From: Candidatus Methylomirabilia bacterium
GTDB lineage: Bacteria > Methylomirabilota > Methylomirabilia > Rokubacteriales > CSP1-6
Assembly (NCBI GenBank): GCA_041476345.1
Contig: JBGOTH010000001.1
Coordinates: forward strand, 1-41,214
DNA: 41,214 nt
Direction of reading: 5' to 3'
Position 1 is the first letter of the stretch; each line of letters starts with the position of its first letter. The notes under the pieces were generated by a model. That model was not told the origin of the DNA. It did no database searches and worked only from the letters and a program-made list of their open reading frames with translations. Shown here in pieces: positions 1 through 37,362 of the stretch. The position numbers and the translations under genes are program-made.

Positions 1-379
1 CCGTCCCGTCCTTGCGCCGCGCGAACAATTCGAGGTCGGCGCCCATCGGCCGCGTGTGCGGATCGGCGACGTAGCGCTCGCGATGGTGGACGTGACCCCC
101 GCGGTAGCTCTCGGGAATCAGGGCCTCGACCGCCTGGCCGACGAGCTCGTCGGGGTCGTAGCCGAACAGGGTCTGCGCCTGGCGATTCGCCAGCACGATG
201 CGACCGTCGCGATCGGCGATCACCATCGCGTCCGGCGCGGCCTCGAGGAGCCCGCGGAAGCGCGCTTCGCTCACGCGCAGGGCCTCGTCCCGGGAGTCGC
301 CTCGTTCCACCACGACACGAATGATAGCGCGCGCGGCACTCCAGAGCGGCGCTTCGGCGACGGCTCGGGCCGCGCGCGC
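1..379 (-). CDS. PAS-domain sensor/regulator, N-terminal part; gene continues past the left window edge
   Basis: Absent from the ORF track because it is open at the edge. The minus-strand translation reads ...RGDSRDEALRVSEARFRGLLEAAPDAMVIADRDGRIVLANRQAQTLFGYDPDELVGQAVEALIPESYRGGHVHHRERYVADPHTRPMGADLELFARRKDGT, a textbook PAS start. The same frame continues upstream through TAG 380-382 into a TM-helix ORF. Confidence 0.75.
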
Positions 380-454
380 CTACCGCAGGTCGAAGACCCA
401 CATGACGAGCACCGTCACGACCGCCATCGTCACGTGGACCAACGTGTCGCTCAT
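380..454 (-). CDS. 24-codon hydrophobic ORF (MSDTLVHVTMAVVTVLVMWVFDLR) in frame with the PAS gene, separated from it only by TAG
   Basis: ATG at 454 overlaps the TGA (451-453) of the upstream TraR-like gene as ATGA. It encodes a single TM-like helix. The TAG at 380-382 is followed in the same frame by the PAS protein. It is either the interrupted N-terminus of the sensor or a leader peptide. Confidence 0.35.
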   Translation of the reverse strand: MSDTLVHVTMAVVTVLVMWVFDLR

Positions 455-660
455 TTCGGGGCTCGCCGTGACGGCGCCGACCCGCCCGGGGCGGGAGCGT
501 CCTGGCACGTCGCGCAGTATCGCGCCGCCGGCATGATGCGCAGGCGGGACACCGCGATGGGCCGGCCGCACGAGAGGCACGGTCGCGGCGAAAGCTCGGG
601 GGGCCGTTCCGGTCCGGGACTACGTGCCGGATCGATCGGATCGTGTCGCATGGCGCTCAC
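451..660 (-). CDS. TraR/DksA-family C4 zinc-finger protein (69 aa)
   Basis: Contains CLSCGRPIAVSRLRIMPAARYCATCQ, which fits the CxxC-N17-CxxC DksA/TraR finger. The GTG start overlaps the BON gene stop as GTGA. Confidence 0.7.
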   Translation of the reverse strand: MSAMRHDPIDPARSPGPERPPELSPRPCLSCGRPIAVSRLRIMPAARYCATCQDAPAPGGSAPSRRAPK

Positions 661-1352
661 GAAGCCGGCGTCGCGACCCAGACGTACGACTCGACGCTCA
701 ACCGGTCGTCGACGGCGTGCACGCCGGACGTGAGGCGGGCCGCGGCGACGAGCGCACGGCGCTCGGCCAGCGAGTCGACCGGCCCCGACAGCGTCACCAC
801 CCCATCGCGCACCTCGACGTTGATGCGCTTCGCGTGGCGCTCCGCGCGCCGGGCAAGCACCGCTTCGATCACGTGCCGCAGATCGTCGGACTTCGCGGGA
901 TGCTTCGCCACGCGGATGTCGTTCGTCACGCCCTGCACGCCGGAGAGGTTCGCGATGACGTGTTCCGCGTCCTCACGCTCGCTCCACGTGTCGACCGTGC
1001 CGTCGAGCGTGACCCAGCCGTTCGACACGGTCGAGGTGATGCGCGTGTCGGGCACGCGCTCATCCCACTCGAGCATCCGCCGCACGGCTTGCGCGAGCTC
1101 GGTATCGGTGCCCCGGCCCGGCTGAACGTCCACCTTGATGTCGTTGGCGACGTCACGGACCCCTTCGACGCGATGAGCCGCCTCCTGGGCGGCGAGGCGC
1201 GTGCCGTACCCGTACACCGTGCCCGTGAGCGTCACCGCGCCGTCGCCGACATGGACGCTGATGTGCCGGTCCTGAACGCGCGGGTCCCACCGGAGCTCGG
1301 CCAGGACCTTGTCGCGGAGGTCGCCGTCGCTGATCGTCGTCGTGGTCATCAT
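657..1352 (-). CDS. BON-domain (OsmY-like) protein, three BON repeats
   Basis: 231 aa with three repeats of the pattern V.V.V.dG.VTL.G.V.....r..a...a..v.GV..V.N.i.V. The SD AGGAGGGG lies just upstream of the ATG. Confidence 0.85.
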   Translation of the reverse strand: MMTTTTISDGDLRDKVLAELRWDPRVQDRHISVHVGDGAVTLTGTVYGYGTRLAAQEAAHRVEGVRDVANDIKVDVQPGRGTDTELAQAVRRMLEWDERVPDTRITSTVSNGWVTLDGTVDTWSEREDAEHVIANLSGVQGVTNDIRVAKHPAKSDDLRHVIEAVLARRAERHAKRINVEVRDGVVTLSGPVDSLAERRALVAAARLTSGVHAVDDRLSVESYVWVATPAS

Positions 1353-1381
1353 CCCCTCCTGGATCGTTGGTCATGGCAGGG

Positions 1382-1398
1382 TGCAACGGCGTTGCCAG
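1382..1398 (-). promoter_or_regulatory. sigma-54 promoter P1 (BON/TraR/PAS operon)
   Basis: The minus strand reads CTGGCAACGCCGTTGCA with exact GG-N10-GC spacing. The -12 GC is at 1383-1384, about 31 nt upstream of the ATG at 1352. Confidence 0.7.
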
Positions 1399-1440
1399 AC
1401 TCCGGCGTAACGAAGTCCATCACTTGCGAGTGACGCGCGC

Positions 1441-1488
1441 GCGACCTGGGACTCGAGCGCCCCAACCGCCGCGGGCGCCGGCGCCCCA
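1441..1488. promoter_or_regulatory. two GC-rich dyads upstream of P1 (candidate enhancer sites)
   Basis: In minus sense, 1465-1441 reads TTGGGGCGCTCGAGTCCCAGGTCGC (GGGG-N8-TCCC+AGGT). 1473-1486 is GGGCGCCGGCGCCC, a perfect 14-nt palindrome, followed by CA. Confidence 0.45.
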
Positions 1489-1494
1489 CCACTT

Positions 1495-3636
1495 TCACTG
1501 CACCGGACCGTGGATGGCACGGAGCAGCGCGAGCGCGCGGCCGGCGAGCGAGAACGGCACACCGACGTCGAGCGTGCGTGTCTTCACGGATGGCGCGTCC
1601 TCGGCTGTGTCCACGACAACCTCCCATCCGATGCCGGGGTGCGCGTTCGGCAAGACGAAGTCGACCGCCGCCGCTCGGGCGTTGAGCAGGACCAGTAGCG
1701 TGTCGTCGGTGATCGGCTCGCCGCGGTCGTTCACGTCGTCCATCGCGAGCCCGCACAGACGAAAACCGAACGCCGTCGTGCCGGCCGCCCAGTCGGCGCC
1801 CGTCATCTCGCCGCCGTCGGGGCGGAGCCACGTGAGATCCTTCATGCCCCCGGCGCAGTCGGGACTTCCCCGGAAGAATTTCCGGCGGTGCAGCTCGGGG
1901 TGCTCGCGGCGCAGCGCGATGAGCCGCCGCGTGAAGGCGAGCCGCGCGCGCGCCTCCTCGTCGAGCGTCCAGTCGTGCCACGAGATCTCGTTGTCCTGGC
2001 AGAACGCGTTGTTGTTGCCGCGCTGAGTCCGTCCGGTCTCGTCGCCGCCGCACAGCATCGGCACACCCTGGGACAGGAACAGCGTCGCGAGCAGGGTGCG
2101 CACCTGGCGCCGCCGCAGCGCCACGATCGCGGGGTCGTCGGTCGGCCCCTCGGCGCCGAAGTTCCACGAGAAGTTCTCGTCGGCACCGTCACGGTTGCCA
2201 AGGCCGTTGGCCTCGTTGTGCTTGCGCTCGTAGCTCACGAGGTCGGCGAGGGTGAAGCCGTCGTGCGCGGTGACGAAGTTGACGCTCGCGTACGGCCGGC
2301 GGCCGTCGCTCTGATAGAGATCGCTGGAGCCGGTGAGACGGTACGCGAGCTCGGCCACCTGCCCGTCACCCCGCCAGTACCGCCGCACGGCATCGCGATA
2401 CTTGCCGTTCCATTCCGCCCATCCCACGGGGAAGTTGCCGACCTGATAGCCGCCCTCTCCGAGATCCCAGGGCTCCGCGATGAGCTTCGCCTGACCGACG
2501 ACCGGGTCCTGGTGGATGACGTCGAAGAACGCCGACAGGCGATCGACGTCGTGGAGCTGGCGCGCGAGCGCGGCGGCGAGGTCGAAGCGGAAGCCGTCGA
2601 CGTGCATCTCGAGGATCCAGTACCGGAGACTGTCCATGAGCAGCTGGAGCGTGCGCGGATGCATCATGTTGAGCGTGTTGCCGCAGCCGGTGTAATCCAC
2701 GTAGCGGCGGCGATCGGCCGGGAGGAGCCGGTAGTACGCGTCGTTGTCGATGCCCCGGAACGAGAGCGTCGGCCCGAGATGGTCGCCTTCGGCGGTGTGG
2801 TTGTAGACGACGTCGAGGATGACCTCGATGCCGGCCTGATGCAGCGTCTTCACGAGCGTCTTGAACTCGCGCACCTGCTCGCCGCGGTCGCCTCCGCTCG
2901 AGTAGCGCGCGTCGGGCGCGAAGAAGCCGATCGAGTTGTAGCCCCAGTAATTCGTGAAGCCGAGGGCTGAGACGGCGCCTTCGGTCACCGCGTGGTGCAC
3001 GGGCAGGAGCTCGACGGCCGTCACGCCGAGCGCGCGGAGATAGTCGACGGCCGCGGGGGACGCGAGCCCGGCGTACGTCCCGCGCAGTGCCGCGGGCACG
3101 CCGGGGTGGCGGGCGGTGAACCCCTTCACGTGCAGCTCGTAGATGACCGTCTCGTTCCACGGCGTCCGGAGCGGGCGGTCGCCGTTCCACGGAAACGTGG
3201 AATCCACGACCACGCTCTTCGCGACGTGCGCCGCGTCGTCGACCGGATCCGGAGCGGGATCGTCGGGCGCTCCGCGACGATAGCCGAATATCGGGGCGTC
3301 GAGCGCGGGATGACCGGCGATCGCCCTCGCGTAGGGATCGAGGAGGAGCTTGGCCGGATCGAATCGATGGCCCGTCCACGGCTCGTAGGGACCGTGCACG
3401 CGATAGCCGTAGAGGAGGCCGGGCTTCGCTTCCGGCAGATACGCGTGCCACACCTGATCGGTCCGCTCGCCGAGCGGAATCCGCGCCGTCTCCCGTGCGG
3501 ACTCCGCATCGTCGAAGAGGCACAGCTCGATCTTCGAGGCGTGCTCGCTGAAGAGCGCGAAGTTCACCCCGATTCCGTCCCACGTCGCGCCGAGCGGAAA
3601 CGGACGTCCGGGCCACGCCCGCCACGCGATCGTCAC
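1495..3636 (-). CDS. glgX: glycogen debranching enzyme GlgX (GH13 isoamylase type)
   Basis: The N-terminus has WPGRPFPLGATWDGIGVNFALFSEHA. GH13 blocks are present: DVVYNHT, GFRFDLA, EPWD, FVTAHDGF. I start it at GTG 3636, which overlaps the USP stop as GTGA, rather than at track start 3687. Confidence 0.9.
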   Translation of the reverse strand: MTIAWRAWPGRPFPLGATWDGIGVNFALFSEHASKIELCLFDDAESARETARIPLGERTDQVWHAYLPEAKPGLLYGYRVHGPYEPWTGHRFDPAKLLLDPYARAIAGHPALDAPIFGYRRGAPDDPAPDPVDDAAHVAKSVVVDSTFPWNGDRPLRTPWNETVIYELHVKGFTARHPGVPAALRGTYAGLASPAAVDYLRALGVTAVELLPVHHAVTEGAVSALGFTNYWGYNSIGFFAPDARYSSGGDRGEQVREFKTLVKTLHQAGIEVILDVVYNHTAEGDHLGPTLSFRGIDNDAYYRLLPADRRRYVDYTGCGNTLNMMHPRTLQLLMDSLRYWILEMHVDGFRFDLAAALARQLHDVDRLSAFFDVIHQDPVVGQAKLIAEPWDLGEGGYQVGNFPVGWAEWNGKYRDAVRRYWRGDGQVAELAYRLTGSSDLYQSDGRRPYASVNFVTAHDGFTLADLVSYERKHNEANGLGNRDGADENFSWNFGAEGPTDDPAIVALRRRQVRTLLATLFLSQGVPMLCGGDETGRTQRGNNNAFCQDNEISWHDWTLDEEARARLAFTRRLIALRREHPELHRRKFFRGSPDCAGGMKDLTWLRPDGGEMTGADWAAGTTAFGFRLCGLAMDDVNDRGEPITDDTLLVLLNARAAAVDFVLPNAHPGIGWEVVVDTAEDAPSVKTRTLDVGVPFSLAGRALALLRAIHGPVQ

Positions 3637-4100
3637 GCGCGGAGGGGAGCGGCGCTCGCGTGGGGTCGTACGGTGAGCACGGGGCACGCCGCCGCGCGAA
3701 CGACGCGATCGGCGACGCTGCCGAGCATGAACCGCTCGAAGCCGCCGCGACCGTGCGTGCCGATGACGATGTACGTGGCCCGTTCCTCCGCCGCCGCCCT
3801 CAGGATCTCCTCGTGAGGGACGCCGACGCGCCGGCGCCAGACCGCCTTCACGCCCTCCTTCACCAGCCGCTGCGCGCGCTCACCGAGCCTCGCCTCCGCC
3901 CAGGCCGCCTGCGTCGCGTAGAGCTTCTCGAGCTCGCCCATGCCGAACGGCGTCTCGCCGTAGAGCGGCGCTTCGACCGACACGTGCAGGAGAATCAGCC
4001 CGGCGCCGAAGCCACGCGCGAGCCGTGCGGCTTCGGCTTCCGCCGCGTCCGCTTCGACCGAAAAATCCGTGGGGTGAAGAATCGTGACCTGGTCAGTCAT
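3633..4100 (-). CDS. universal stress protein (single USP domain)
   Basis: Reads MTDQVTILHPTDFS...ILLHV...ATYIVIGTHGRGGFERFMLGSVADRVVRAAACPVLTV. The ATG at 4100 is preceded by GGAGG. The longer track ORF (to 4526) is an unsupported extension. Confidence 0.9.
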   Translation of the reverse strand: MTDQVTILHPTDFSVEADAAEAEAARLARGFGAGLILLHVSVEAPLYGETPFGMGELEKLYATQAAWAEARLGERAQRLVKEGVKAVWRRRVGVPHEEILRAAAEERATYIVIGTHGRGGFERFMLGSVADRVVRAAACPVLTVRPHASAAPLRA

Positions 4101-4129
4101 GCGCACCTCCATTGCCGTGCGGCGATGGG

Positions 4130-4146
4130 TGCACCGCCAATGCCAG
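4130..4146 (-). promoter_or_regulatory. sigma-54 promoter P2 (USP-glgX operon)
   Basis: The minus strand reads CTGGCATTGGCGGTGCA with GG-N10-GC exact. The predicted leader to the ATG at 4100 is about 19 nt and contains the SD. Confidence 0.65.
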
Positions 4147-4211
4147 ACCGTTGACCACGCAATTCCAACCATTTGAGCGCGGCCGGACCGCCGAGCCGTG
4201 TCCCAGCCGCG

Positions 4212-4240
4212 CCTCGCGTGGGGAGCCGCCACCCCAGTCG
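4212..4240. promoter_or_regulatory. GGGG-N8-CCCC dyad between divergent promoters P2 and P3
   Basis: Reads CCTCGCGTGGGGAGCCGCCACCCCAGTCG. In minus sense it is TGGGG-N8-CCCCACGCGAGG. It lies 54 bp from the P3 GG and 79 bp from the P2 GG. Confidence 0.5.
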
Positions 4241-4284: not shown

Positions 4285-4300
4285 TGGCGTATGCGTTGCA
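4285..4300 (+). promoter_or_regulatory. sigma-54 promoter P3 (LOG-family gene)
   Basis: Reads TGGCGTATGCGTTGCA with GG-N10-GC exact. The leader to the ATG at 4318 would be very short (about 7 nt), which lowers confidence. Confidence 0.55.
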
Positions 4301-4317
4301 CGCGGGTCTCCACATCG

Positions 4318-5091
4318 ATGAAGGACGACAGAAGATCGATCGACACCGGCGCGGACTGGACGACCGCGGCGCATCCCGTCGAGGCCGTCCGCTTTCTCGA
4401 AGGTCCCCAATCGCGCGGCTTCGAGCTTGCCCGCGCGATCCGCATCTTCGTCGAGCTCATGCGCGGGTTCCGCGCGCTGCACTTCGTCGGGCCCTGCGTC
4501 ACCATCTTCGGCTCCGCCCGCTTCAAGGAAGACCATCCCTACTACGCGATCGCGCGCGAGGTCGGCGCCGGAGTCGCGCGCTGCGGGTTCACGGTGATGA
4601 CAGGCGGCGGGCCCGGCATCATGGAGGCGGCCAACCGGGGCGCGCGGGAGGCGGGCGGACGCTCGATCGGCTGCAACATCGAGCTGGCGCTAGAGCAGGA
4701 GCCCAACCCGTATCTCGATCGCTGGATCACCTTCCGCCACTTCTTCGTGCGCAAGCTGATGCTCGTGAAGTACTCGTACGCGTTCATCGCGCTGCCGGGA
4801 GGCTTCGGCACCCTGGACGAGATCTTCGAGACCGCCACGCTGATCCAGACCGGCAAGATCCGTGACTTCCCGCTCATCCTCGTCGGGAGGGACTTCTGGC
4901 GTCCGCTCACCGACTTCCTCCACGGCCCGCTCGAGGCCACGGCTGTCATCGATCCCGCCGACGCCGACCGCATTCGGGTCACGGACTCCGCGGCCGAGGC
5001 CGTGAGCGCCGTGCGCGACATCGCGATGCTGCGCTTCGGGCTGCACTACCCTCGCCCGCGGCGCCTCTGGTTCCTGCGCGAGCGCAGCTAG
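4318..5091 (+). CDS. LOG-family (TIGR00730) nucleotide/cytokinin riboside 5'-monophosphate phosphoribohydrolase-like protein
   Basis: Contains TIFGSARF...MTGGGPGIMEAANRGA...PGGFGTLDEIFE, the LOG PGGxGTxxE signature. The start is taken at ATG 4318. Confidence 0.85.
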   Translation: MKDDRRSIDTGADWTTAAHPVEAVRFLEGPQSRGFELARAIRIFVELMRGFRALHFVGPCVTIFGSARFKEDHPYYAIAREVGAGVARCGFTVMTGGGPGIMEAANRGAREAGGRSIGCNIELALEQEPNPYLDRWITFRHFFVRKLMLVKYSYAFIALPGGFGTLDEIFETATLIQTGKIRDFPLILVGRDFWRPLTDFLHGPLEATAVIDPADADRIRVTDSAAEAVSAVRDIAMLRFGLHYPRPRRLWFLRERS

Positions 5092-5092: not shown

Positions 5093-5285
5093 TGGATTAT
5101 TCATGAGCGGGGCCGGGAGCGTGCCGCCTCCTGTCCTCGCCGAGGTGAGGGCGGTGGGCCGGGGTGGACGGCCGACATCCGCAGCCGCCTCGGCGAGGAC
5201 AGGAGGCCGTCTACCTCGGCCCACCGCCCTCACCTCGGCTGCGGATGTCGCCGGCACACCCCCGGCCTCGCTCATGAATAATCCA
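5093..5285. repeat. 193-bp MITE-like palindromic element filling the LOG-MFS intergenic space
   Basis: It has perfect 17-bp terminal inverted repeats: TGGATTATTCATGAGCG (5093-5109) and CGCTCATGAATAATCCA (5269-5285). The arm similarity extends to about 33 bp. The interior holds three interleaved inverted-repeat pairs in the order A B C A' B' C'. Confidence 0.6.
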
Positions 5286-5295: not shown

Positions 5296-6504
5296 GTGCG
5301 CCTGTCCCGCAATCTCTGGGCGGTCAGCGCGGCGAGCTTCTTCATGGACGTCGCGAGCGAGATGACGATGAACCTCGTGCCCCTTCTGCTGAGCAACGTG
5401 CTGGGCGCGAGCACCGCGGTCATCGGTCTGGTGGAAGGCGTCTCGCAGGCGACGGCGAACCTGGTTCAGGTGGGCTCGGGCTGGCTCTCCGATCGGCTGC
5501 GCGCGCGCAAGTGGCTCGCGGTCGCGGGCTATGCGCTGTCCGCCGCGTCGAAGCCGACGCTGTACGTCGCAGACACGTGGGGGCTCGTGCTCGGCGCGCG
5601 ATGGATCGATCGCGTCGGGAAGGGCGTCCGCACGGCGCCTCGGGACGCCCTCGTCGCCGACTCGACGGACCGTCAGCATCACGGCGCGGCGTTCGGGTTT
5701 CAACGCGCCGCCGACACGGCGGGGGCCGTCGTCGGTCTCGGCATCGCGCTGGCCGTGGTCGTCGCCAGCGGAGGGGCATCGGCGTCGCTCGCGCGTGGCA
5801 CGTTTCAGACGATCGCCCTCGTGAGCGTCATCCCGGCCACGCTGGCCGTGCTGTCGCTCGCGGTCGGCGCTCGTGACGTGCCGCCGCCCGCTCCCGACGC
5901 GCGCGCGGGGCCGGGTCGGCTCGACGGGTCGTTCCTCATGTTCGTCGGCATCGTGGCGATCTTCGGTCTCGGCAACGCCTCGGACGCGTTCCTCGTGCTG
6001 CGCGCGCAGGAGCGCGGGCTGCGCGTCGCGGACATCCTCCTCGCTCTCCTCGCGTTCAATGTCGTGTACGCGCTCGTGTCGGCGCCCGCGGGCGCGCTCT
6101 CCGATCGCCTCGGGCGCCGGCGCATGATCGTCGTCGGATGGCTCGTCTACGCGGCGGTGTATTTCGGGTTCGCGCTCGCCCGCGCGCCGTGGCACGTATG
6201 GCTCCTGTACCTGGTCTACGGCGCGTACTACGGCGCCACGTACGGCGTCCTCAAGGCGGCGATCGCGGATCTCGTGCCGGTCGAGCGGCGCGCCACCGCG
6301 TACGGCGTTTACAACACGACCGTCGCGATGGCCAACCTCGCCGCCTCGCTCGTCGCGGGTGTGCTGTGGCAAGGCGTGGGAAGCTGGCCAGGCTTCGGGC
6401 CCTCGGCGCCGTTCCTCTTCGGCGGCACGCTGGCGCTGGCCGCGGCAATCCTTCTGAGCCTCGTACCGACGTGGCCCGACGCGCGCCGAGCGGACATGAT
6501 GTAA
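5296..6504 (+). CDS. MFS transporter
   Basis: 402 aa with about 12 predicted hydrophobic helices and the MFS loop motif GWLSDRLRARK. It is a paralog of the minus-strand MFS at 37636-38829 (similar N-termini). Confidence 0.85.
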   Translation: MRLSRNLWAVSAASFFMDVASEMTMNLVPLLLSNVLGASTAVIGLVEGVSQATANLVQVGSGWLSDRLRARKWLAVAGYALSAASKPTLYVADTWGLVLGARWIDRVGKGVRTAPRDALVADSTDRQHHGAAFGFQRAADTAGAVVGLGIALAVVVASGGASASLARGTFQTIALVSVIPATLAVLSLAVGARDVPPPAPDARAGPGRLDGSFLMFVGIVAIFGLGNASDAFLVLRAQERGLRVADILLALLAFNVVYALVSAPAGALSDRLGRRRMIVVGWLVYAAVYFGFALARAPWHVWLLYLVYGAYYGATYGVLKAAIADLVPVERRATAYGVYNTTVAMANLAASLVAGVLWQGVGSWPGFGPSAPFLFGGTLALAAAILLSLVPTWPDARRADMM

Positions 6505-6517
6505 AGATCGGTGCGCT

Positions 6518-6548
6518 TGGGGGCGGCGGCGCCCCAGGTGAGGTAGCC
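6518..6548. promoter_or_regulatory. GGGG-N8-CCCC+AGGTGAGG dyad upstream of P4
   Basis: Reads TGGGGGCGGCGGCGCCCCAGGTGAGGTAGCC. The CCCC starts 88 bp upstream of the P4 GG. Confidence 0.5.
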
Positions 6549-6619
6549 ACGCCGCTATTCATCGCGCGCTCGGCGCGCGCGCATCCCTCATCTGCGCGAT
6601 TTGTCTCTCGAAGCGCCGG

Positions 6620-7804: not shown

Positions 7805-7814
7805 CGCTACTCGC

Positions 7815-28983: not shown

Positions 28984-31900
28984 GTGGCATCCGGTGGCAA
29001 GGGCGTTCGGCTCGCCGAACGCCTGCGCGGCCCGCAGGAAGCCCTCGAGGCCACGTATCGACGTCTCGCTGGAGGCGCCCCGGGCGCGGATCGACCTGCG
29101 GCGGAGTGGCTGCTCGACAACTACTACATCGTCGAGCGGGCCTTCCAACTGGTTCGGGAGGAGTTCCCGCCCGCGTTCGAGCACCGTCTCCCGCCCAGTG
29201 CTCCCGGTCCGCTGCTCGGTTTCCCCGTGAGCTATGCACTGGCTCAGGAAATCGTCACCGCCGGCGCCCAGCTCGTCGAGGTAGACACGATCGTACGGGT
29301 CGTCGAGGAATTCCAAACCGTCCGCACTCTATCGGTGGCGGAGGTCTGGGCACTGCCCGTGCTCCTCCGCATCGTGCTGCTCGAGTCCCTGGCATCCGCC
29401 GTCTCCATCGCACTCCCCGAGGAGAGAGCCGCGGGGGAAACGGCGGGGGACCGGATCGTCGCGGCCTGCATCCGCAGTCTGCACACCCTCGAGACCACCG
29501 ATTGGAGAGTGTTCTTCGAAAGGGTCAGCGAGATCGAGCGGATCCTCCGCGAGGACCCGGCCGGCGCGTACGCCCGGATGGACTTCGAGACGCGCGATCG
29601 CTACCGCAAGGTCGTGGAAGAACTGGCCGCGCGCAGCGACTGGTCCGAGGAAGCCGTCGCGCGCGAGGCTGTCGAGCGGTCGCGGAAAGGCATGGACGGC
29701 CGTCGCGGCCATGTCGGCTACCACCTCATCGACGGCGGCTCCGAGGCGCTCGGTCACGCGGTCGGCTACCGTCCCCGTTGGGGAACGCGATGGCGTCGCT
29801 TCCTTCTGCGTCACCCGACGCCGTGGTACCTCGGCGCGATCGCCGTGGTTGCCGTGGTTCATCTGGTGGCGCTGGGCATGGCGCTACTCGCTACGGGAAC
29901 CGCGTCTGTCGTTATCGCTGCAGGGCTGGTGCTGGCCCTCGTCCCCGCCGCGACCATCGCCGTAAGTGTCGTGAACCGTCTCGGGACGCGTGTCGTCCCG
30001 GTGCGCGTTCTGCCCAAGCTGGACTTCCGCGAGGGCCTCCCCATCGATTGCCGAACCATGATCGTCGTCCACGCCATCCTCTCGCCGGAAGACGATATCG
30101 CGCCACTGCTGTCGCGGCTCGAGGTTCACGGGCTCGCCAGCGCCGACGCCAATCTCCATCTCGCCCTGCTCGTCACGCTCGCGGACGCGCCCGAGGAATC
30201 GATGCCGGGTGACGTCGATCTGCTACGACGGCTCGAAGCAGGCGTGCGCGCGCTGAATGCAAAGTACGGGCACGGCGCCAGCGGCCCGTTTCACGTGTTG
30301 CATCGAAGGCGACTGTGGAACCCCGGTGAGGGGTGCTGGATGGGCTGGGAGCGCAAGCGCGGCCAGCTCGCCGAGTTCAACCGCCTGCTCGCCGGCGACC
30401 ATCGGACCAGCTTTGCGACGCACGTCGGCGATGCGAGCTTCCTTTCGACGACCCGGTTCGTGATCACCCTGGACACGGACACCGAGCTCCCCCGTGGCGC
30501 GGCCCGCCGCCTCGTCGCCACCCTCGCGCATCCCCTCAACCGGGCCGAGATCGAGACCGGGACGGGTCGCGTGACCGCCGGCTACACGGTCCTGCAGCCT
30601 CGGATGGAAGTGACGCCCTCGGGCGCCGCCTCGTCGCTCTCGCGCCTCTTCGCGGGGGACCCCGGCTTCGATCTCTACGCCCGCGCGTCATCGGACGTGT
30701 ACCAGGACCTCTTCGGCGAGGGCGTCTACGTCGGCAAGGGGATCTACGACCCGGTGGCGTTCGAGGCGAGCCTGCGCGGGCGGGTGCCGGAGAACGCAAT
30801 CCTCAGTCACGACCTCTTCGAGGGAATTCACGGAAGAACGGCGCTGGTGACGGACGTCGTCCTCTTCGAGAACTACCCCGCCGACTACCGTAGTTACTGG
30901 CGACGTCTCCACCGCTGGGTCCGGGGAGACTGGCAATTGCTCCCGTGGCTCGGCCCCCGGGTACCCCTTGCGGCAGGCGGTCGCGCACCGAACCGACTGT
31001 CGCTGATCTCGCGTTGGAAGATCATCGACAACCTTCGCCGCACCTTGCTTCCGCCGACATTGCTCGCCTTCCTGCTCCTGGCATGGGTTGGGTTCCCCAG
31101 CTCGCCCGCCGTGTGGACGATGATCGCCGTCCTCGTGCTCGCGGCCCCGCTGCTCACGGAGGCGATGGGAGGTCTCCTCGCGGCGAATCGGGTGGCGGCC
31201 TTGCCTCCGGCCGTCCGGGGCGTGGTGCTGCGACTGCGGCCTGCGTCGGTGCTCTGGATCCTCCACATCGCCCTGCTCCCCCATCGCGCCGTCGTCCTGG
31301 CTGACGCCATTCTCCGCACGCTCGTCCGTCTGCGCCGGGGGCGCCGCCTTCTGGAATGGACGTCAGCGGCGCGCGTGGCACGCCTGCTGGTTGACACGGA
31401 GTCACGCCGACTGTTCTGGCGCGAAATGGTCACGGCTCCCATCATCGCAATCGGCACGCTGGTGCTGCTCGCGCTCTGTCGGCCGACCGCGCTTCCGGCC
31501 GCGCTTCCACTCGCGGCGCTCTGGCTCCTCGCTCCCGAAATCGCGGCGTTCGTCAGCCGGCCACGACGTCGGCGTGTGGCGGCGCTGTCGGAGGGCGATG
31601 CTCGACGCCTCCGTCTGCTGGCGCGCCGCACGTGGCTCTTCTTCGACAGGTTCGTGGGACCGGACGACCACTGGCTGCCACCTGATCACTTCCACGAGGA
31701 GCCGCGCGGTGAAGTCGCGCGGCGAACCTCGCCGACCAACATCGGACTCCTGCAACTCGCCACGCTGTCCGCGCACGATCTCGGTCACGCGGGTTTGCTG
31801 TCCGTGATCCTGCGCCTGCGGAACACGTTCGAGACGCTCGCACGCATGGAGCGCCACCGCGGCCACTTCTACAACTGGTACGACACACGCGATCTCTCTC

Positions 31901-34900
31901 CGCTGTCGCCCCGTTATGTCTCCACGGTCGACAGCGGAAATCTCGCCGCCTGTCTTTTGGTCGTGAAGCAGGCCTGTCGGGAGCTCGTCGGGGCCCCTGT
32001 CATCGGGCCTGCCCGATGGGATGGGCTGATCGACACGCTGGACATGCTGCCTCAGGTCATCGAGCGACGCGTTCGACAGGAGCACGCCGAGCGGTTCACC
32101 GCCCTTCGCACGTGCGTGGAGAAGATGCGCGCGGAGGCGATCGAGTTGAAGGCGGCGCGGCAGGCGTGGGGGCCCGGCATCGCCTCGCTCCTCGAGCGCG
32201 GCGGCACCGAGCTCGATCAGGCCGTTCTCGCGGCGATCGCGCAGGACGGCGCAGGCCTCGATTCCGATCTGCTCTCTGAGCTGCGCGTGTGGTCCGCCGA
32301 AGTGCCCCAGCACCTCGAGGCCATGTGGCGCGACGTCGAGCTCTGTCTTCCGTGGGAGGCGCCGGATGCCAGGCCACCTGTCGTGGGACCTGGAGACGTT
32401 CGCGAGGCGCTGGCGGAGACATGGACGGCGCTCGAGCGAAGCCTCCCCGTCGATCCCACGCTGAACGGGCTGCCCTCGACGTGCGAGACCGCCAGCGCCG
32501 GCCTGTCACGGCTCGAGAAGCAACTTGATGGGTCGCCCAACGACGCGGCGGGTCTGGCGGAAGCACGCGCCTGGGCAGAGCGCCTCCAGAAGGCGATCGC
32601 ACGGGCACGCGAGACCGCGCGCAGCATGCTGTCCACTCTCGATGTGCTCGCGGAACAGGCCGAGGCGCTCTTCGATGCGATGGACTTCACCTTCCTTTAC
32701 GACGAGGGACGACGACTCTTCTACATCGGCCACGATGTCACCGCGGATCGCCACGACGCTTACCACTACGACCTGCTCGCCTCCGAGGCGAGGCTGGCCA
32801 GCTTCATCGCCATCGCGAAGGGCGACGTCCCTGAAGAGCACTGGCTCCAGCTCGGCCGGCCGCTCGCTCGCGTGGACGGCGCGACCGCACTCCTCTCCTG
32901 GAACGGCACGATGTTCGAGTACCTGATGCCGACGCTGCTCTTGCGCGAAGCGCCGGACAGTCTGATGGGTCGAGCGTGCGTAGCCGCCGTGCAGACCCAG
33001 ATCGCATACGCCGGCCGTCATGGCGTGCCGTGGGGCATGTCGGAATCGGAGTACTACCGCTTCGACGCCCAGCGCAACTACCGGTACCGCGCCTTCGGCG
33101 TCCCTGATCTCGGCTTCAAGCGCGGGTTGGCGGACGACATCGTCGTCGCGCCGTATGCCTCCCTGCTCGCGTTGCCGTTTGCGCTACCGGCGGTGATGGC
33201 GAATCTCGACCGCCTGGACGAGCTCGGCGTCCTGGGACGCTACGGGCTCTACGAAGCCGTGGACTTCACGGCGTCACGTCTGGAGGCCGGGACGACCCAC
33301 GCCATCGTCCGCTCGTTCATGGCCCACCACCAGGGGATGATCCTCACGTCGATCAATAACCTGATCCACGACGCGCGCATGGTGCATCGCTTCCACGCCG
33401 ACGCCATCGTCAGAACGACGGAAACGCTCCTCTTCGAGCGTCCGGCCGTCGCGGCTCCGAAGACCCTGACGCGCCTCGTGCTCGCCATGCCTCGCCCTGC
33501 TCCACTCCGGCGAGCACCGCTCGCACCGTGGTCGGCGCGTTCCGGCACTGGCATTCCGCAGGCCCACGTGCTGTCGAACGGTCGCTATCGCGTCCTCGTC
33601 TCGGAAGGAGGCGGCGGCAGCGACTGGGGTGCCGTGGCCCTCACGCGCTGGCAGGCTGACCGCACGCTCGACGGCCCCGGCTTCCGTGTGTACCTTCGCG
33701 ATCTCGACCGCCGACTCTCCTGGTCTGTGACGCCCGGTGACGGCGAGCTGGTGTTCCACGCGCACATGGTCGAGCGGCGTCAGCGCGTCCACGACATCGC
33801 GCTTCACGAGCAGGTCTGCGTGGCGCCGGACGATGACATCGAAGTCCGGCTGGTGACGCTGCGGAACCACACGGCCTCGCGGCGGCGGCTGGTCGTGACG
33901 AGCTACGCGGAGGTCGTGGTCGGTGACGCAGCCGAGGACCAGCGACATCCGGCGTTCAGCAAGCTGTTCGTCGAAAGCGAGTACGTCGACGACCTGCACG
34001 CGCTCGTGTTCCACCGCCGCCCGCCCTCGGCGCGAAAGCCCGACGCCTGGCTCGCCCACCTGTTGGTGCTCCCCTCCGCACGGGCGCGAGCGGCCGGTTA
34101 CGAAAGCTCGCGCGAGCGCTTCGTCGGCCGCGGAAGGACGGTGCGGCAGCCGGGCGCATTCGACCGAGACGAGCCGACCGGCGCGGGAATGACGGGCGCG
34201 ACGCTCGATCCGATCATGGCGCTGTCGGCAGAGATCGAGCTCCCGGCGTATCACGCCGCGACGATCGGCTATGTGGTCCTGGCCGCCAATTCACGCGAGG
34301 ACGTCCTCGCCCTCGCGCGCCGCTATCGCTCGCTTCCGACCCTCGAGTGGAGCTTCGAGCTGGCGCGCCAGCGCAGCGAAGCCGAAGTCGCCGATCTGGC
34401 GCTCAGCTCGCAGGATCTCCCAGCGGTGGCGATGCTGCTCTCTCTTCTCCTGTACTCCCACGACGCCCTGCGAGCTCCCGCCGGGATCCTCGCCGCAAAC
34501 CGCCTCGGGCAACGCTCTCTGTGGAAGTACGCGCTCTCCGGAGACCTGCCGATCCTCCTCGTGCGTATCGGCTCCGCCGAGGACGCGGCGATCCTCTCTT
34601 CAGTGCTGCGCGCACACCGCTTCTGGCGAGGACGGGGCGTCTCCGTGGACGTGGTCATCCTGAACGAGCGGGCCGAAGGCTACCTGACCGAGACCGACGA
34701 TCACGTCAACCGTGCGATCACGCAGGCCGGTGCCGACGCCTGGCGCGATCGGCCGGGCGGCGTCTTCGTCATCCCGTCCGCTCGGATCGCGGAGGCCGAT
34801 CGCATCCTGCTCCTGTCGGCGGCGCGCGTCGTGCTGGACGGCACTCAGGGGAGCATCGGCCAGCAGCTCGCGCGTATGGGAGCCGAGCCGGCGAGACTAC

Positions 34901-37362
34901 CGCGCCTCGTTCCGAGCCTGGCGCAGCCACCGGCGTCGGAGAGCCTCCCGCGACCGGACACGCTCGTGTTCGACAACGGACTCGGAGGATTCAGCGCCGA
35001 CGGCCGCGAGTACGTGATCCACCTGGAGCCGGGCACGTCGACGCCGGCGCCGTGGGTGAACGTGGTGGCGAATCGGCACCTGGGCTTCGTCGTGTCTGAG
35101 TCCGGCGGCGGCTACACGTGGGCCGAGAACAGCGGCGAGAACCGGCTGACGCCGTGGCGCAACGATCCGACGGCGGATGAGCCGGGCGAGGTCGTATATC
35201 TCCGCGACGAGGAGACCGGTGCCGTGTGGACTCCGACGCCGCGGCCGACCCCGGCCGACGGCGGCTACCAGATCCGCTACGGGGCGGGGTACGCCACCTT
35301 CGTGCACCGCAGCCACGGACTGGAGCAGACGTTGCGTCTGTGGGTCCCGCCCGACGATCCGATCAAGCTCGTCGAGCTCAGGCTCACCAACCGGCTGGAC
35401 CGCCCCCGCCGCCTGACGGTGACGTACTACGTCGAGTGGGTGCTCGGGGCAACGCGCGATCGATCGCAGGCGTTCGTGGTACCGGAATTCGATCCGGCCT
35501 CGGAGGCCCTGCTCGCGCGGAGCCCGTGGAACGAGGATTTCGCAGACCGCGTGGCGTTCGTCGCGGCGAGCGACAAGCTCCACGGCCTGACTGCCGACCG
35601 AACGGAGTTCCTCGGCCGGCACGGCCACTATGCCGCCCCGGCGGCGATGGAACGCATCGGTCTCGCGAGCGCGGTCCGCGCCGGGCTCGATCCGTGCGCC
35701 GCGCTGCAGCTTCATCTCGACCTCGCGCCCGGCGCGACGGCGCAGGTGCACTTCATGCTCGGCCAGGCCGCGGGACGCGACGAGGCATTGGGCCTCGTGA
35801 CGAAGTACCGCGAGCGCGCCACCGTCGAGGCCGCGTGGGCCGATCTGCAGCGGCACTGGGACGCAGTGCTTGGCACGGTGACCGTGCGCACGCCGGATCC
35901 CGCGCTCGATGTGATGCTCAACCGGTGGCTCCTCTACCAGGTGCTCTCGAGCCGGGTCTGGGGGCGGACCGGCTACTACCAATCCAGCGGCGCGGTCGGG
36001 TTCCGCGATCAGCTGCAGGACGTCGCCGCGCTGATCCATGCCGCACCCACGATGTGCCGAGACCATATCCTCGAGGCGGCGCGGCACCAGTTCGAGGAGG
36101 GAGACGTGCTTCACTGGTGGCACCCACCGGCGGGCGCCGGGGTGCGGACGCGGTGCTCCGACGATCTTCTGTGGCTGCCCTTCATCACGGCGCACTACGT
36201 CGAGGCCACTGGAGACGACACGATTCTGTCCGAGGAGGTGGCATTCCTCGCCGGGGCGCCGCTCGAGCCGAACGAGGTCGAGCGCTACGCCCGCTTCGAA
36301 CCCTGCGAACGCCGCGCGCCGCTCTACCGGCATTGCGTGGCGGCGCTGGAGCGCGGTCTAACCGCGGGTCCCCATGGCCTGCCCCTCTTCGGAAGCGGCG
36401 ACTGGAACGACGGGATGAACCGCGTCGGGATCGGCGGTCGCGGTGAAAGCGTGTGGCTCGGCTGGTTCCTTCACGCGACGCTCACGCGCTTCGCGTGCGT
36501 GAGCGAGCGCATGGGCGATACGGATCGAGCACGGACGCTGCGACGCCAGGCGGAGGAACTGCGCACCGCACTCGAAGCCTCGGCGTGGGACGGGGCATGG
36601 TACCGGCGTGGATACTACGACGACGGTACGCCGCTCGGATCGGCCCAGCGGGTCGAATGCCGGATCGATTCCCTCGCCCAATCCTGGGCGGTCCTCTCGT
36701 CAGCGGCGGACAAGCCGCGAGCCGCGTCGTCGATGGACGCGGTGGCAGAACACCTCGTGCGCGAGGAGGATGGACTGATCCTCCTCCTCGTGCCTCCCTT
36801 CGCAAGCTCCGAACAGGATCCCGGCTACATCCGCGGCTACCCTCCGGGCATTCGGGAAAATGGCGGCCAGTACACCCACGCCGCACTGTGGGTGCTCTGG
36901 GCGCTGGTGGAGCGCGGCGACGTCGAGCGCGCGGTCGGTCTGTTCCAGCGGCTGCTGCCGATCCATCACGCACTCACGCGCGGTGCGGTGGTCACCTATC
37001 GAGCCGAACCGTACGTGATGGCCGCCGATGTGTACGCGGCGCCACCGTGGACCGGTCGCGGAGGCTGGACCTGGTACACAGGTGCCGCGGCTTGGGCATA
37101 TCGCCTGGGCATCGAAGCGATCCTGGGGCTGCGGCCTTCGCGGGCAGGATGGCGCCTCGATCCACACATTCCGGCGAGCTGGCCCGAATTCGAAATGGCC
37201 GTACGCGACGGGCTCACCGTCCTTCACATTCGCGTGGAGAACCCGCGCCGCGTGAACTCAGGGGTCGAGCGGATGCTCCTCGACGGCGAGCCCATCGATC
37301 CGCCGATCCTGCCGCGCCTGAAAGACGGGCGGACTCACGAGGTACGCGTCACGATGGGATAG
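28984..37362 (+). CDS. cyclic beta-1,2-glucan synthase-like protein (NdvB/ChvB/Cgs type: TM GT84 + GH94 phosphorylase-like domains)
   Basis: 2792 aa. The N-terminus has EWLLDNYYIVERAF. TM helices follow, then the GT motif ITLDTDTELPRGAA. The C-terminal GH94-like blocks are GFRDQLQD, HWWHP and FGSGDWNDGMNRVG. Confidence 0.85.
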   Translation: MASGGKGVRLAERLRGPQEALEATYRRLAGGAPGADRPAAEWLLDNYYIVERAFQLVREEFPPAFEHRLPPSAPGPLLGFPVSYALAQEIVTAGAQLVEVDTIVRVVEEFQTVRTLSVAEVWALPVLLRIVLLESLASAVSIALPEERAAGETAGDRIVAACIRSLHTLETTDWRVFFERVSEIERILREDPAGAYARMDFETRDRYRKVVEELAARSDWSEEAVAREAVERSRKGMDGRRGHVGYHLIDGGSEALGHAVGYRPRWGTRWRRFLLRHPTPWYLGAIAVVAVVHLVALGMALLATGTASVVIAAGLVLALVPAATIAVSVVNRLGTRVVPVRVLPKLDFREGLPIDCRTMIVVHAILSPEDDIAPLLSRLEVHGLASADANLHLALLVTLADAPEESMPGDVDLLRRLEAGVRALNAKYGHGASGPFHVLHRRRLWNPGEGCWMGWERKRGQLAEFNRLLAGDHRTSFATHVGDASFLSTTRFVITLDTDTELPRGAARRLVATLAHPLNRAEIETGTGRVTAGYTVLQPRMEVTPSGAASSLSRLFAGDPGFDLYARASSDVYQDLFGEGVYVGKGIYDPVAFEASLRGRVPENAILSHDLFEGIHGRTALVTDVVLFENYPADYRSYWRRLHRWVRGDWQLLPWLGPRVPLAAGGRAPNRLSLISRWKIIDNLRRTLLPPTLLAFLLLAWVGFPSSPAVWTMIAVLVLAAPLLTEAMGGLLAANRVAALPPAVRGVVLRLRPASVLWILHIALLPHRAVVLADAILRTLVRLRRGRRLLEWTSAARVARLLVDTESRRLFWREMVTAPIIAIGTLVLLALCRPTALPAALPLAALWLLAPEIAAFVSRPRRRRVAALSEGDARRLRLLARRTWLFFDRFVGPDDHWLPPDHFHEEPRGEVARRTSPTNIGLLQLATLSAHDLGHAGLLSVILRLRNTFETLARMERHRGHFYNWYDTRDLSPLSPRYVSTVDSGNLAACLLVVKQACRELVGAPVIGPARWDGLIDTLDMLPQVIERRVRQEHAERFTALRTCVEKMRAEAIELKAARQAWGPGIASLLERGGTELDQAVLAAIAQDGAGLDSDLLSELRVWSAEVPQHLEAMWRDVELCLPWEAPDARPPVVGPGDVREALAETWTALERSLPVDPTLNGLPSTCETASAGLSRLEKQLDGSPNDAAGLAEARAWAERLQKAIARARETARSMLSTLDVLAEQAEALFDAMDFTFLYDEGRRLFYIGHDVTADRHDAYHYDLLASEARLASFIAIAKGDVPEEHWLQLGRPLARVDGATALLSWNGTMFEYLMPTLLLREAPDSLMGRACVAAVQTQIAYAGRHGVPWGMSESEYYRFDAQRNYRYRAFGVPDLGFKRGLADDIVVAPYASLLALPFALPAVMANLDRLDELGVLGRYGLYEAVDFTASRLEAGTTHAIVRSFMAHHQGMILTSINNLIHDARMVHRFHADAIVRTTETLLFERPAVAAPKTLTRLVLAMPRPAPLRRAPLAPWSARSGTGIPQAHVLSNGRYRVLVSEGGGGSDWGAVALTRWQADRTLDGPGFRVYLRDLDRRLSWSVTPGDGELVFHAHMVERRQRVHDIALHEQVCVAPDDDIEVRLVTLRNHTASRRRLVVTSYAEVVVGDAAEDQRHPAFSKLFVESEYVDDLHALVFHRRPPSARKPDAWLAHLLVLPSARARAAGYESSRERFVGRGRTVRQPGAFDRDEPTGAGMTGATLDPIMALSAEIELPAYHAATIGYVVLAANSREDVLALARRYRSLPTLEWSFELARQRSEAEVADLALSSQDLPAVAMLLSLLLYSHDALRAPAGILAANRLGQRSLWKYALSGDLPILLVRIGSAEDAAILSSVLRAHRFWRGRGVSVDVVILNERAEGYLTETDDHVNRAITQAGADAWRDRPGGVFVIPSARIAEADRILLLSAARVVLDGTQGSIGQQLARMGAEPARLPRLVPSLAQPPASESLPRPDTLVFDNGLGGFSADGREYVIHLEPGTSTPAPWVNVVANRHLGFVVSESGGGYTWAENSGENRLTPWRNDPTADEPGEVVYLRDEETGAVWTPTPRPTPADGGYQIRYGAGYATFVHRSHGLEQTLRLWVPPDDPIKLVELRLTNRLDRPRRLTVTYYVEWVLGATRDRSQAFVVPEFDPASEALLARSPWNEDFADRVAFVAASDKLHGLTADRTEFLGRHGHYAAPAAMERIGLASAVRAGLDPCAALQLHLDLAPGATAQVHFMLGQAAGRDEALGLVTKYRERATVEAAWADLQRHWDAVLGTVTVRTPDPALDVMLNRWLLYQVLSSRVWGRTGYYQSSGAVGFRDQLQDVAALIHAAPTMCRDHILEAARHQFEEGDVLHWWHPPAGAGVRTRCSDDLLWLPFITAHYVEATGDDTILSEEVAFLAGAPLEPNEVERYARFEPCERRAPLYRHCVAALERGLTAGPHGLPLFGSGDWNDGMNRVGIGGRGESVWLGWFLHATLTRFACVSERMGDTDRARTLRRQAEELRTALEASAWDGAWYRRGYYDDGTPLGSAQRVECRIDSLAQSWAVLSSAADKPRAASSMDAVAEHLVREEDGLILLLVPPFASSEQDPGYIRGYPPGIRENGGQYTHAALWVLWALVERGDVERAVGLFQRLLPIHHALTRGAVVTYRAEPYVMAADVYAAPPWTGRGGWTWYTGAAAWAYRLGIEAILGLRPSRAGWRLDPHIPASWPEFEMAVRDGLTVLHIRVENPRRVNSGVERMLLDGEPIDPPILPRLKDGRTHEVRVTMG

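Follow-up and report, generated by a model that had tools for sequence, protein, structure and literature searches.

A sigma-54-linked stress gene set with a common upstream dyad and a putative haem-PAS/NtrC-type relay in a Candidatus Methylomirabilia bacterium

Contig JBGOTH010000001.1 of a Candidatus Methylomirabilia bacterium (GCA_041476345.1), a complete contig of 41,214 bp and ~69% GC, was analysed over its full length and is called the window below. It carries stress-related operons behind ten sigma-54 promoters, each with an 18-bp dyad upstream. Viewed together with the genes that lie to its left in a close relative, the window is probably (we put the probability at about 0.65) the core of a sigma-54-dependent stress/low-oxygen regulon of the dormancy type, run by a kinase relay and an NtrC-type bacterial enhancer-binding protein (bEBP). 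The original prediction, made from the sequence alone, of a multi-operon stress gene set wired to sigma-54 is borne out by the common dyad and the ten promoters. Genes were called from GC3-guided open reading frames (ORFs), followed by Pfam and NCBIfam scans.

Sigma-54 promoters and their upstream dyad

Sigma-54 promoters have GG at −24 and GC at −12 with an exact spacing of 10 nt (TGGCAC-N5-TTGCW), facing the gene. Ten sites in the window fit TGGCAY-N5-xTGCA, all with the GG-N10-GC spacing. They lie at positions 1397(−), 4145(−), 4285(+), 6619(+), 7927(+), 11385(−), 11599(+), 12411(+), 25909(−) and 27852(+). Every one of them (10/10) is intergenic and oriented toward the next gene, and the −12 GC is separated from the start codon by 15–49 nt. 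The pattern TGGCN8TGCR was counted 11 times against 4.2 expected, a number that 0 of 100 shuffles reached. In a scan with a position weight matrix (PWM), which was made from the ten sites themselves and is hence circular, these scored 14.6 bits or more; the next score was 14.2, from one intragenic site, and the one after that 11.2. This gap sets the promoters clear of the background of a ~69% GC sequence. The 14.2-bit site (TGGCGTTCCGGTTGCG, 8076–8091, +) lies within the coding region of a phosphoribosyltransferase (PRT) gene and has no dyad; it could be a promoter inside the gene or have arisen by chance. The DASS, MFS and PolX genes of the window are without a sigma-54 promoter. Eleven promoters (P1–P11) had been proposed originally, of which ten were recovered; for the eleventh, ahead of an operon encoding an eRF1-like protein, Tdh, Kbl and an ATPase, there is only a weak, out-of-phase candidate at 17949–17964.

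The upstream activating sequences (UAS) bound by bEBPs typically lie 80–150 bp upstream of the transcription start and work in a face-of-helix-dependent manner. Each promoter of the window is preceded by the dyad TGGGG-N8-CCCCA, usually extended by (C/G)GTGAG and described more fully by the consensus TGGGGYG-N4-CRCCCCA. The exact form TGGGG-N8-CCCCA is present in four copies (0.03 expected), and with no more than one mismatch it is found in the 150 nt upstream of 7 of the 10 promoters as against 1.8% of random positions. The dyads are situated 57–125 bp upstream of the −24 element and, measured from the dyad centre, their distances to it group at ~58, 70, 81, 91 and 102 nt. Across the ten window sites the distances follow the turn of the helix, the period being 11.1 bp (R=0.86, p=0.0007), and with non-redundant sites from relatives added the value becomes p<1e-4. 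Between dyad and promoter there is often an AT-rich element resembling a site for integration host factor (IHF); such a site also accompanies dyad and promoter in relatives, and there its agreement with the IHF consensus is exact (TAACCGaTTGATT). Judged by its sequence elements, the promoter layout is textbook bEBP-dependent architecture.

Two pairs of promoter regions are paralogous. Those of the Leu-type dehydrogenase (LeuDH; 6517–6634) and the CDF-like transporter (11497–11614) correspond over ~100 nt, including an identical 19-mer (CATCTGCGCGATTTGTCTC), and those of the PRT (7813–7870) and DLH (12299–12356) operons over the dyad plus ~40 nt. This suggests that the regulon has grown by duplication of promoter cassettes.

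The putative sensor kinase, its proposed relay partners and an NtrC-type activator

The left edge of the window interrupts a gene (1–274, −) whose 5' part encodes a PAS domain (Pfam). Exact look-up of the BON protein encoded at 657–1349, read from its second ATG, led to contig JBGPVB010000026.1 of GCA_041491405.1 (L015), while the protein read from the first ATG (657–1352) gave no match. L015 is 99.6% identical to window positions 1–3345 and reaches 9.3 kb further left. The full gene is found there at 3072–4184, its start corresponding to window position 274, and encodes a PAS-HisKA-HATPase_c protein of 370 aa. Of the two identities first considered for the PAS protein, bEBP or histidine kinase, the complete kinase in L015 upholds the latter and excludes the former. 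A stand-alone PAS protein was rejected as well, the L015 gene having HisKA and HATPase domains. With the truncated PAS fragment as query, the only homologues retrieved were short PAS-only or frameshifted proteins, and their contexts were uninformative.

FixL haem-PAS domains have a proximal His (H200 in BjFixL) and a pocket with Arg206 and Tyr207, and their Arg220 contacts bound O2. When the kinase PAS domain was searched alone against the PDB, a multi-sensor kinase (10jx, 2e-26), FixL (1d06, 1e-18; 1dp6, 1e-16) and DosP were returned, the best matches all being haem O2 sensors (FixL, DosP). Residues H61, R67 and Y68 of the kinase align to H200, R206 and Y207 of BjFixL. By this alignment the domain would belong to the FixL/DosP haem-PAS family with its proximal His kept, and haem binding is predicted. 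On its 3' side the kinase gene is followed by two others, one for a receiver-only protein of 149 aa and one for a hybrid kinase of 490 aa (REC-PAS-HisKA-HATPase), the three together occupying L015 3072–6102. Further left in L015 are a MacB-type ABC pair, an M50 protease with a CBS domain, a cytochrome c, a DksA/TraR zinc-finger protein and then a bEBP.

An AAA+ sigma-54 activator had been predicted to lie outside the window, and both parts of this claim were confirmed: 0 of the 30 called genes match Pfam Sigma54_activat, and the bEBP gene is found ~7 kb beyond the left end, at L015 10250–11647, or ~6 kb from where the kinase gene ends. Its 465-aa product has the architecture REC-Sigma54_activat-HTH_8, and D54, GESGTGK (172), GAFTGA (219), DEIGE (243) and the HTH_8 domain are those of the canonical NtrC family; the best PDB match is NtrC1 (1ny5, 9e-89). 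The presence of a bEBP with GAFTGA implies that of sigma-54. Directly 3' of the bEBP gene in L015 there is a dyad (AGGGGCGTGCGTGCCCCA), 80 nt on a promoter (TGGCACTCCGGTTGCT), and then a USP gene.

More than 100 full-length orthologues of the bEBP were found at 72–86% identity, the named sources being Candidatus Rokubacteria, Methylomirabilota and Binatia metagenome-assembled genomes (MAGs). In locus L103 the genes for kinase, receiver, hybrid kinase and bEBP are contiguous (6238–11470), their products being 65%, 77%, 65% and 74% identical, respectively; around them lie a P-type ATPase, HSP20, USP-CBS-APH and several COX operons. Locus L101 (bEBP 81%) contains FNT, USP, PAS-kinase, bEBP, USP-USP-CBS and further USP and CBS genes, and in L105 (bEBP 96%) the bEBP is followed by USP-APH-kinase-CBS-REC-COX2-COX1. 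L105 has five dyad-promoter pairs, L103 one or more, and L101 at least four, of which one precedes the operon holding the bEBP itself. Cytochrome c/FixO-like and COX1/COX2 genes stand behind the same dyad at the orthologous bEBP loci. From this recurrent adjacency of dyads and bEBP in relatives we infer that the dyad belongs to this bEBP. Autoregulation of the bEBP is apparent in L101 and may, by extrapolation, hold for the window organism. A dyad-like element at L015 9707–9731 was considered as a site of zf-DksA/bEBP autoregulation and rejected, the equivalent perfect dyad in L105 serving a divergent cytochrome c gene. A metagenome scan with the bEBP yielded only generic NtrC homologues (38–49% identity) beside NtrB-like kinases, with no regulon genes and no dyads.

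In a scan of genome contigs, the best relatives of the BON protein came from Methylomirabilia and Rokubacteria MAGs, the best match being 59% identical. The scan also showed clustering of BON, USP, CBS, PRT and cyclic glucan synthase (Cgs) genes, and the same families surround BON in Acidobacteriota and Myxococcota MAGs. Sigma-54-type promoters were seen 5' of BON homologues at L004 9947, L010 9906, L002 1627 and L011 3324, these homologues coming from 'delta proteobacterium', Polyangiales and Methylomirabilia MAGs. In L004 the synteny BON-tandem USP-Cgs is kept at 55–62% identity, but the upstream repeat is GGGACGG-N17-CCGTCCC. Sigma-54 control of the BON gene set may therefore extend beyond one phylum, with other activators.

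Operons of the window and their likeness to the DosR regulon

The searches with Pfam and NCBIfam hidden Markov models (HMMs) upheld nearly all of the family calls made originally. Missing from that list were two MFS transporters, an ATG22-type MFS, a DASS transporter, an ACP-FAAL-acyltransferase fusion (13642–16491) and PolX at the right end. An Rfam scan of the whole window gave no match.

The leftmost operon begins with the BON/OsmY-like gene (657–1349, −; 3xBON, Pfam BON 2e-48) and runs into the kinase genes. Its promoter (TGGCAACGCCGTTGCA, 1382–1397, −) lies 33 nt from the start codon, and the centre of its UAS dyad (TGGGGCGCTCGAGTCCCA, 1447–1464) is 58 nt upstream of the promoter. The second gene (454–651, −) encodes a TraR/DksA-type C4 finger protein of 65 aa, with an NCBIfam match (E 1e-6) under the cut-off and a CxxC-N20-CxxC motif in the translation. 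It is followed by a small ORF (380–454) for a 24-aa hydrophobic peptide, placed between the TraR-like gene and the kinase gene; at this position a related MAG has only an opposite-strand ORF called.

A single USP gene (3633–4100, −) and GlgX (1495–3687, −) have overlapping ORFs and form one operon (1495–4100, −; Pfam) behind the −24/−12 motif TGGCATTGGCGGTGCA (4130–4145, −). The perfect dyad at 4219–4236 is common to this promoter (4145, −; 82 nt) and the divergent one at 4285 (+; 57 nt), an arrangement also kept in L105. The divergent promoter (TGGCGTATGCGTTGCA, 4285–4300) belongs to the LOG operon (4285–5091, +), whose LOG/TIGR00730 gene occupies 4318–5091 (Pfam, NCBIfam). Between LOG and an MFS gene lies a palindromic element of 193 bp (5093–5285), which has 81-nt arms (83% complementary) and, nested in it, inverted repeats of smaller size; it resembles a MITE/REP-type insertion, or else a terminator or insulator of unusual size.

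Next on the plus strand is the ELFV (Leu/Glu-type) dehydrogenase (6519–7804; Pfam), with its UAS at 6519–6536, promoter GGGTATGCCCATTGCA at 6619–6634 and gene at 6683–7804. In the PRT-esterase operon (7815–9974, +; UAS 7815–7832, promoter TGGCATTGACGATGCA 7927–7942) the PRT gene (7969–8631) overlaps that of an erythromycin-esterase-family protein (8628–9974; both Pfam). The DUF2267 operon (10369–11453, −) has its UAS at 11436–11453 and promoter TGGCATCGCCGTTGCG at 11370–11385 and encodes the DUF2267 protein (10801–11202, −; Pfam) and, as second gene, a secreted protein of 138 aa (10369–10785, −). Facing away from it is the CDF operon (11499–12282, +; UAS 11499–11516, promoter AGGCAGGCCTGTTGCA 11599–11614), with the CDF-like transporter at 11581–12282 (+; Pfam). 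The DLH operon (12301–17811, +; UAS 12301–12318, promoter TGGCATTAACGATGCA 12411–12426) encodes a 50-aa membrane ORF, DLH (12631–13347, +; Pfam), a 93-aa Cys/His protein, the ACP-FAAL-acyltransferase fusion and the ATG22-type MFS.

Toward the right, the CBS-PNPOx operon (24810–26008, −) consists of the CBS pair (25411–25860, −) and a Pyridox_ox_2 (PNPOx-like) flavoprotein (24810–25355, −; both Pfam) behind promoter CGGCACTCGTGTTGCA (25894–25909), with a UAS-like dyad at 25991–26008 that has two mismatches. The best solved relatives of the CBS-pair protein, 9znf, 9zng and 9zni, are 'CBS domain-containing proteins' whose chain labels (4, 5, 6, 7) suggest subunits of a large complex. The tandem USP-Cgs operon (27718–37362, +) has its UAS (27718–27735) within the divergent DASS gene and promoter TGGCACCGCCCTTGCC at 27852–27867, followed by the tandem USP (27899–28951, +; Pfam) and a cyclic beta-1,2-glucan synthase with GH94 (28984–37362, +; 2,792 aa).

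Several small ORFs belong to these operons. Those at 11233–11334 (33 aa) and 12454–12606 (the 50-aa membrane ORF) are both called as genes in a related MAG, and with the 24-aa ORF they are first or internal cistrons of regulon operons. Two further ones, at 13344–13625 (93 aa, DLH operon) and 18105–18257 (50 aa, directly 5' of the eRF1-like gene described below), are paralogous small Cys/His ORFs with the common N-terminal motif M(S/N)(Y/C)(T/I)CGHPERAH-GxGRCRVPDCPCER(V/F)EPGDTI. Neither matched Pfam or NCBIfam, and they may represent an undescribed metal-binding family.

The remaining candidate operon (17949–24786, +) encodes from 17996 onwards a CBS fragment, the 50-aa Cys/His ORF, the eRF1-like protein (18271–19440, +; Pfam baeRF), an SDR-type putative Tdh (19458–20510, +; Pfam/NCBIfam), Kbl (20507–21700, +) and a P2-type ATPase (+) ending at 24786. 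Kbl, at 621 bits against a cut-off of 493, appears by this score to be bona fide. The CBS fragment is a 36-aa ORF (17996–18106) with a CBS-like start (MNVEDIMTADVITVGPEESV...) and then a stop, and appears to be a CBS-gene remnant. The longest ORF of the ATPase overlaps kbl by ~270 nt (21427–21700), which adds an N-terminal extension of ~230 aa without domains; the start is uncertain. Upstream of the operon is a hairpin (17868–17907, +) with a perfect 18-bp stem (dG −51 kcal/mol, z −5.5), which is at the same time a fully symmetric UAS-like palindrome (CTCACCCGGGG-N8-CCCCGGGTGAG) and could be the terminator of the DLH operon, the UAS of the next one, or both. With the weak candidate CGGTCTCGCTCTTGCT (17949–17964) as its promoter, the operon can be counted only weakly as a member of the sigma-54 set.

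Balon/Rv2629-type factors have an aeRF1-like fold without NIKS and GGQ and bind the ribosomal A site. The eRF1-like protein of the window matches Pfam baeRF_family10 at 6e-20 and, over residues 92–386, Balon itself (MSMEG_1130, PDB 8v9j_z) at 2.4e-10. It matches the NCBIfam models for MSMEG_1130 and Rv2629 over their full length, scoring 64 bits (cut-off 480) and 62 bits (cut-off 320), respectively. By these scores it is predicted to belong, distantly, to the Balon superfamily. Among the homologues of Balon is Rv2629 itself, an inhibitor of translation (PMC10901736).

The original prediction had likened the gene set to the DosR regulon of Mycobacterium tuberculosis. At the level of families the resemblance stands: both sides have USPs, a CBS pair (Rv2626c), a Balon-type eRF1-like protein (Rv2629; a predicted distant relative here) and a P2-type ATPase (CtpF), and the kinase input, haem-based in DosR, is predicted to be so here. 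PRT and erythromycin esterase, the two domains of Rv2030c (PMC4410610), occur together here also, but as two overlapping genes. A protease like Rv2625c, which is an M50-CBS protease (PMC5309233), lies next door in L015, and HSP20 in the L103 locus. At the level of orthology the resemblance does not stand, the matches to Rv proteins being weak: the CBS protein matched Rv2626c at E=7e-6, and the tandem USP reached no mycobacterial USP at 1e-5. Rv0571c had been cited as a PRTase-DLH protein; the literature has it as a 'putative phosphoribosyltransferase', which agrees with the first half, and the DLH half was not confirmed. Acg-type nitroreductases, NarK2/NarX, Tgs1, NrdZ, FdxA and HspX, all DosR hallmarks, are absent from the window, and a GerE/LuxR regulator is encoded neither in it nor in L015. 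DosR is a NarL/LuxR-type regulator acting at Dev boxes with sigma-70 and a haem-GAF sensor, in contrast to the NtrC-family AAA+ activator, sigma-54 and predicted haem-PAS sensor here; BON, GlgX, LOG, Cgs, DUF2267 and the FAAL-acyltransferase are not DosR-regulon content, and the Balon/ATPase operon is at most a doubtful member of the sigma-54 set. The statement that Actinobacteria lack sigma-54 proved correct, Actinomycetota being effectively without functional RpoN (PMC12316311). That the same module is found here under a different regulatory logic holds for the sigma-54 wiring but not as a novelty, as there are precedents (PMC3721108, PMC11841059).

It is thus conceivable, though we rather doubt it, that the DosR likeness is superficial and reflects USP, CBS, P-type ATPase and hydrolase families that are common in any bacterial stress island. 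The weak M. tuberculosis matches, including that to the Rv2629-family HMM, the many missing hallmarks and the BON, GlgX, LOG, Cgs and DUF2267 genes would all fit such a view, whereas the combination of PRT with erythromycin esterase and the Balon-superfamily factor are rare and specific coincidences. The M50-CBS protease of L015, the HSP20 gene adjoining the bEBP in L103 and the recurrence of the families around BON in Acidobacteriota and Myxococcota likewise speak for more than a superficial likeness.

Proposed circuit, alternatives and significance

In the circuit that we propose, a soluble FixL-type haem-PAS kinase would respond to O2, to a diatomic gas related to it or to a redox signal and, with the receiver-only protein and the REC-PAS-HisKA-HATPase hybrid kinase, would form a multi-step phosphorelay, phosphotransfer presumably running in that order and toward the regulator. 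The relay would control the NtrC-family protein (REC, AAA+ with GAFTGA, Fis-type HTH). Once activated, this would bind the 18-bp dyad on one helix face, 57–125 bp upstream of −24 and often with an IHF-like site between bound dyad and promoter, and would open sigma-54 RNA polymerase complexes at at least ten promoters, presumably as induction at low oxygen. The output would comprise USPs, the CBS pair, BON/OsmY, GlgX, LOG, the amino-acid dehydrogenase, PRT and erythromycin-esterase-like proteins and DLH, together with a lipid-repair-type FAAL-acyltransferase with its MFS, DUF2267, the CDF transporter, the PNPOx-like flavoprotein and Cgs. Since the kinase operon lies behind the BON promoter, positive feedback would follow.

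The closest known system, compared by its published description, is NmpRSTU of Myxococcus xanthus, with the haem kinase NmpU, the receiver NmpT, the REC-hybrid kinase NmpS and the NtrC-like NmpR (PMC11841059). NmpR activates seven sigma-54 promoters, among them those of a CBS gene, a USP and a P-type ATPase with cbb3 oxidase (PMC11841059); the system is hypoxia-responsive and both of its operons are autoregulated (PMC11841059, McAllister et al., J Bacteriol 2025). The order of kinase, receiver-only protein and REC-hybrid kinase plus an NtrC-like regulator is the same here, and contiguous in L103. Upstream dyads at sigma-54 promoters, an output that includes CBS, USP and P-type ATPase, and the link to terminal oxidases are also shared, as would be, judged by the position of the dyads, autoregulation of the kinase and regulator operons, the dyad of the latter being known from L101. 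The differences are in the first kinase (FixL-type PAS here, protoglobin in NmpU), the extra PAS domain of the hybrid kinase and the site, which is TGGGG-N8-CCCCA here and paired GCGCA-N5-TGCGC boxes for NmpR. The NmpR box has 8 matches in the window against 10.6 expected, none of them in promoter regions. The regulon is also much larger here (at least ten promoters in 41 kb, including BON, GlgX, LOG, PRT/Ere, DLH and Cgs), and the phylum, Methylomirabilota-like, is another one.

In Burkholderia cenocepacia the lxa locus, needed for anoxic persistence of an aerobe (PMC3721108), encodes USPs, a cation ATPase and an alpha-crystallin, and its overlap with DosR was noted by the authors (Sass et al. 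2013, PMC3721108). It resembles the window as a large cluster with DosR-like content, but has an FNR/Anr-type TGA-N6-TCA motif instead of sigma-54 and a bEBP, and belongs to another lineage with another gene set. With FixL-FixJ the window has a homologous sensor PAS domain in common, in which the equivalents of the proximal His, Arg206 and Tyr207 are kept; FixJ is LuxR-type, in contrast to the NtrC-type sigma-54 activator presumably reached here through a multi-kinase relay, and the equivalent of Arg220 is Leu. The low-oxygen/dormancy regulon of the sigma-54/NtrC type is hence already known; it is the sensor domain and the DNA site that differ here.

Several observations weigh against the proposed circuit. 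The dyads of the CDF, CBS and tandem USP (USP2) operons are degenerate, with 2–3 mismatches. A convincing −24/−12 element is missing from the operon that holds the eRF1-like/Balon and P2-type ATPase genes, the most DosR-like pair of the window; the sole candidate there (17949–17964) is weak, 61.5 nt from the palindrome and out of phase with all other sites. The equivalent of FixL Arg220 is Leu in the aligned kinase PAS, so that ligand specificity may differ, and the hybrid kinase carries a PAS domain of its own. The osmotic/envelope genes in the regulon (BON, Cgs) do not point specifically to oxygen. Finally, another bEBP elsewhere in the genome could own the dyad; two contigs of the related MAG were reached, with no rpoN among them.

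The Leu at the Arg220 position and the second PAS domain would also fit another signal. The regulon and its regulator might be real and yet answer to something other than oxygen, be it energy or redox state, NO/CO, or osmotic stress or desiccation, as part of a general dormancy or stationary-phase programme. BON/OsmY, Cgs, GlgX and LOG would suit an osmotic or starvation response, and USP and CBS proteins are generic nucleotide/energy sensors (PMC11841059). We nevertheless consider this unlikely, given that the equivalents of the proximal His, R206 and Y207 are kept, that the PAS domain finds its best matches in haem O2 sensors, that cytochrome c/FixO-like and COX1/COX2 genes share the dyad in orthologous loci, and that the nearest characterised system answers hypoxia.

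Ownership of the dyad by another activator, with the left-side NtrC-type regulator serving its own neighbourhood or an unrelated set, is less probable still. Large-genome soil bacteria encode many bEBPs, and the gene in L015 is ~7 kb from the kinase operon, but a dyad and promoter lie directly 3' of the bEBP in three genomes (L015, L101, L105) and precede the operon containing it in L101. The contiguity of kinases and bEBP in L103, and the dyad-bearing promoter ahead of the window's kinase operon, also speak against it. Chance matches in GC-rich DNA, without co-regulation of the genes, can be dismissed with near certainty, for although the sigma-54 consensus is GC-rich, like the ~69% GC genome (a concern raised in PMC12316311), the shuffle controls, the intergenic and correctly oriented position of all sites, the coupling and phasing of dyads and promoters and their conservation in relatives with 74–96% identical bEBPs speak against it.

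If the reading as a sigma-54-dependent regulon under the relay and its NtrC-type activator is correct, the sigma-54/NtrC type of hypoxia circuit described in Myxococcus would extend to a further phylum, where haem sensor and DNA site are different ones, and it would give the recurring USP/CBS/Balon/ATPase set a third regulatory wiring, after DosR and the Burkholderia lxa locus. High GC content has been suggested to impair discrimination of sigma-54 promoters (PMC12316311); their clean discrimination at ~69% GC is a counter-example that bears on the high-GC account of rpoN loss in Actinomycetota (PMC12316311). More tentatively, Methylomirabilota/Rokubacteria-type soil bacteria might run a phylum-wide dormancy programme with one haem-PAS relay, one NtrC-type activator, an undescribed enhancer (TGGGGYG-N4-CRCCCCA-SGTGAG) and a conserved DosR-like cassette, the toolkit of which would be USP, CBS, the Balon-like factor, PRT/erythromycin esterase, M50-CBS protease, P2-type ATPase and HSP20. 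Were this true, the cassette would be older and more portable than its regulators and would have been rewired at least three times, under NarL-type, FNR-type and sigma-54/NtrC-type control. For an uncultured and globally abundant soil lineage, the kinases, activator, enhancer, spacing rule and at least ten target operons described here would make up a testable regulatory map.

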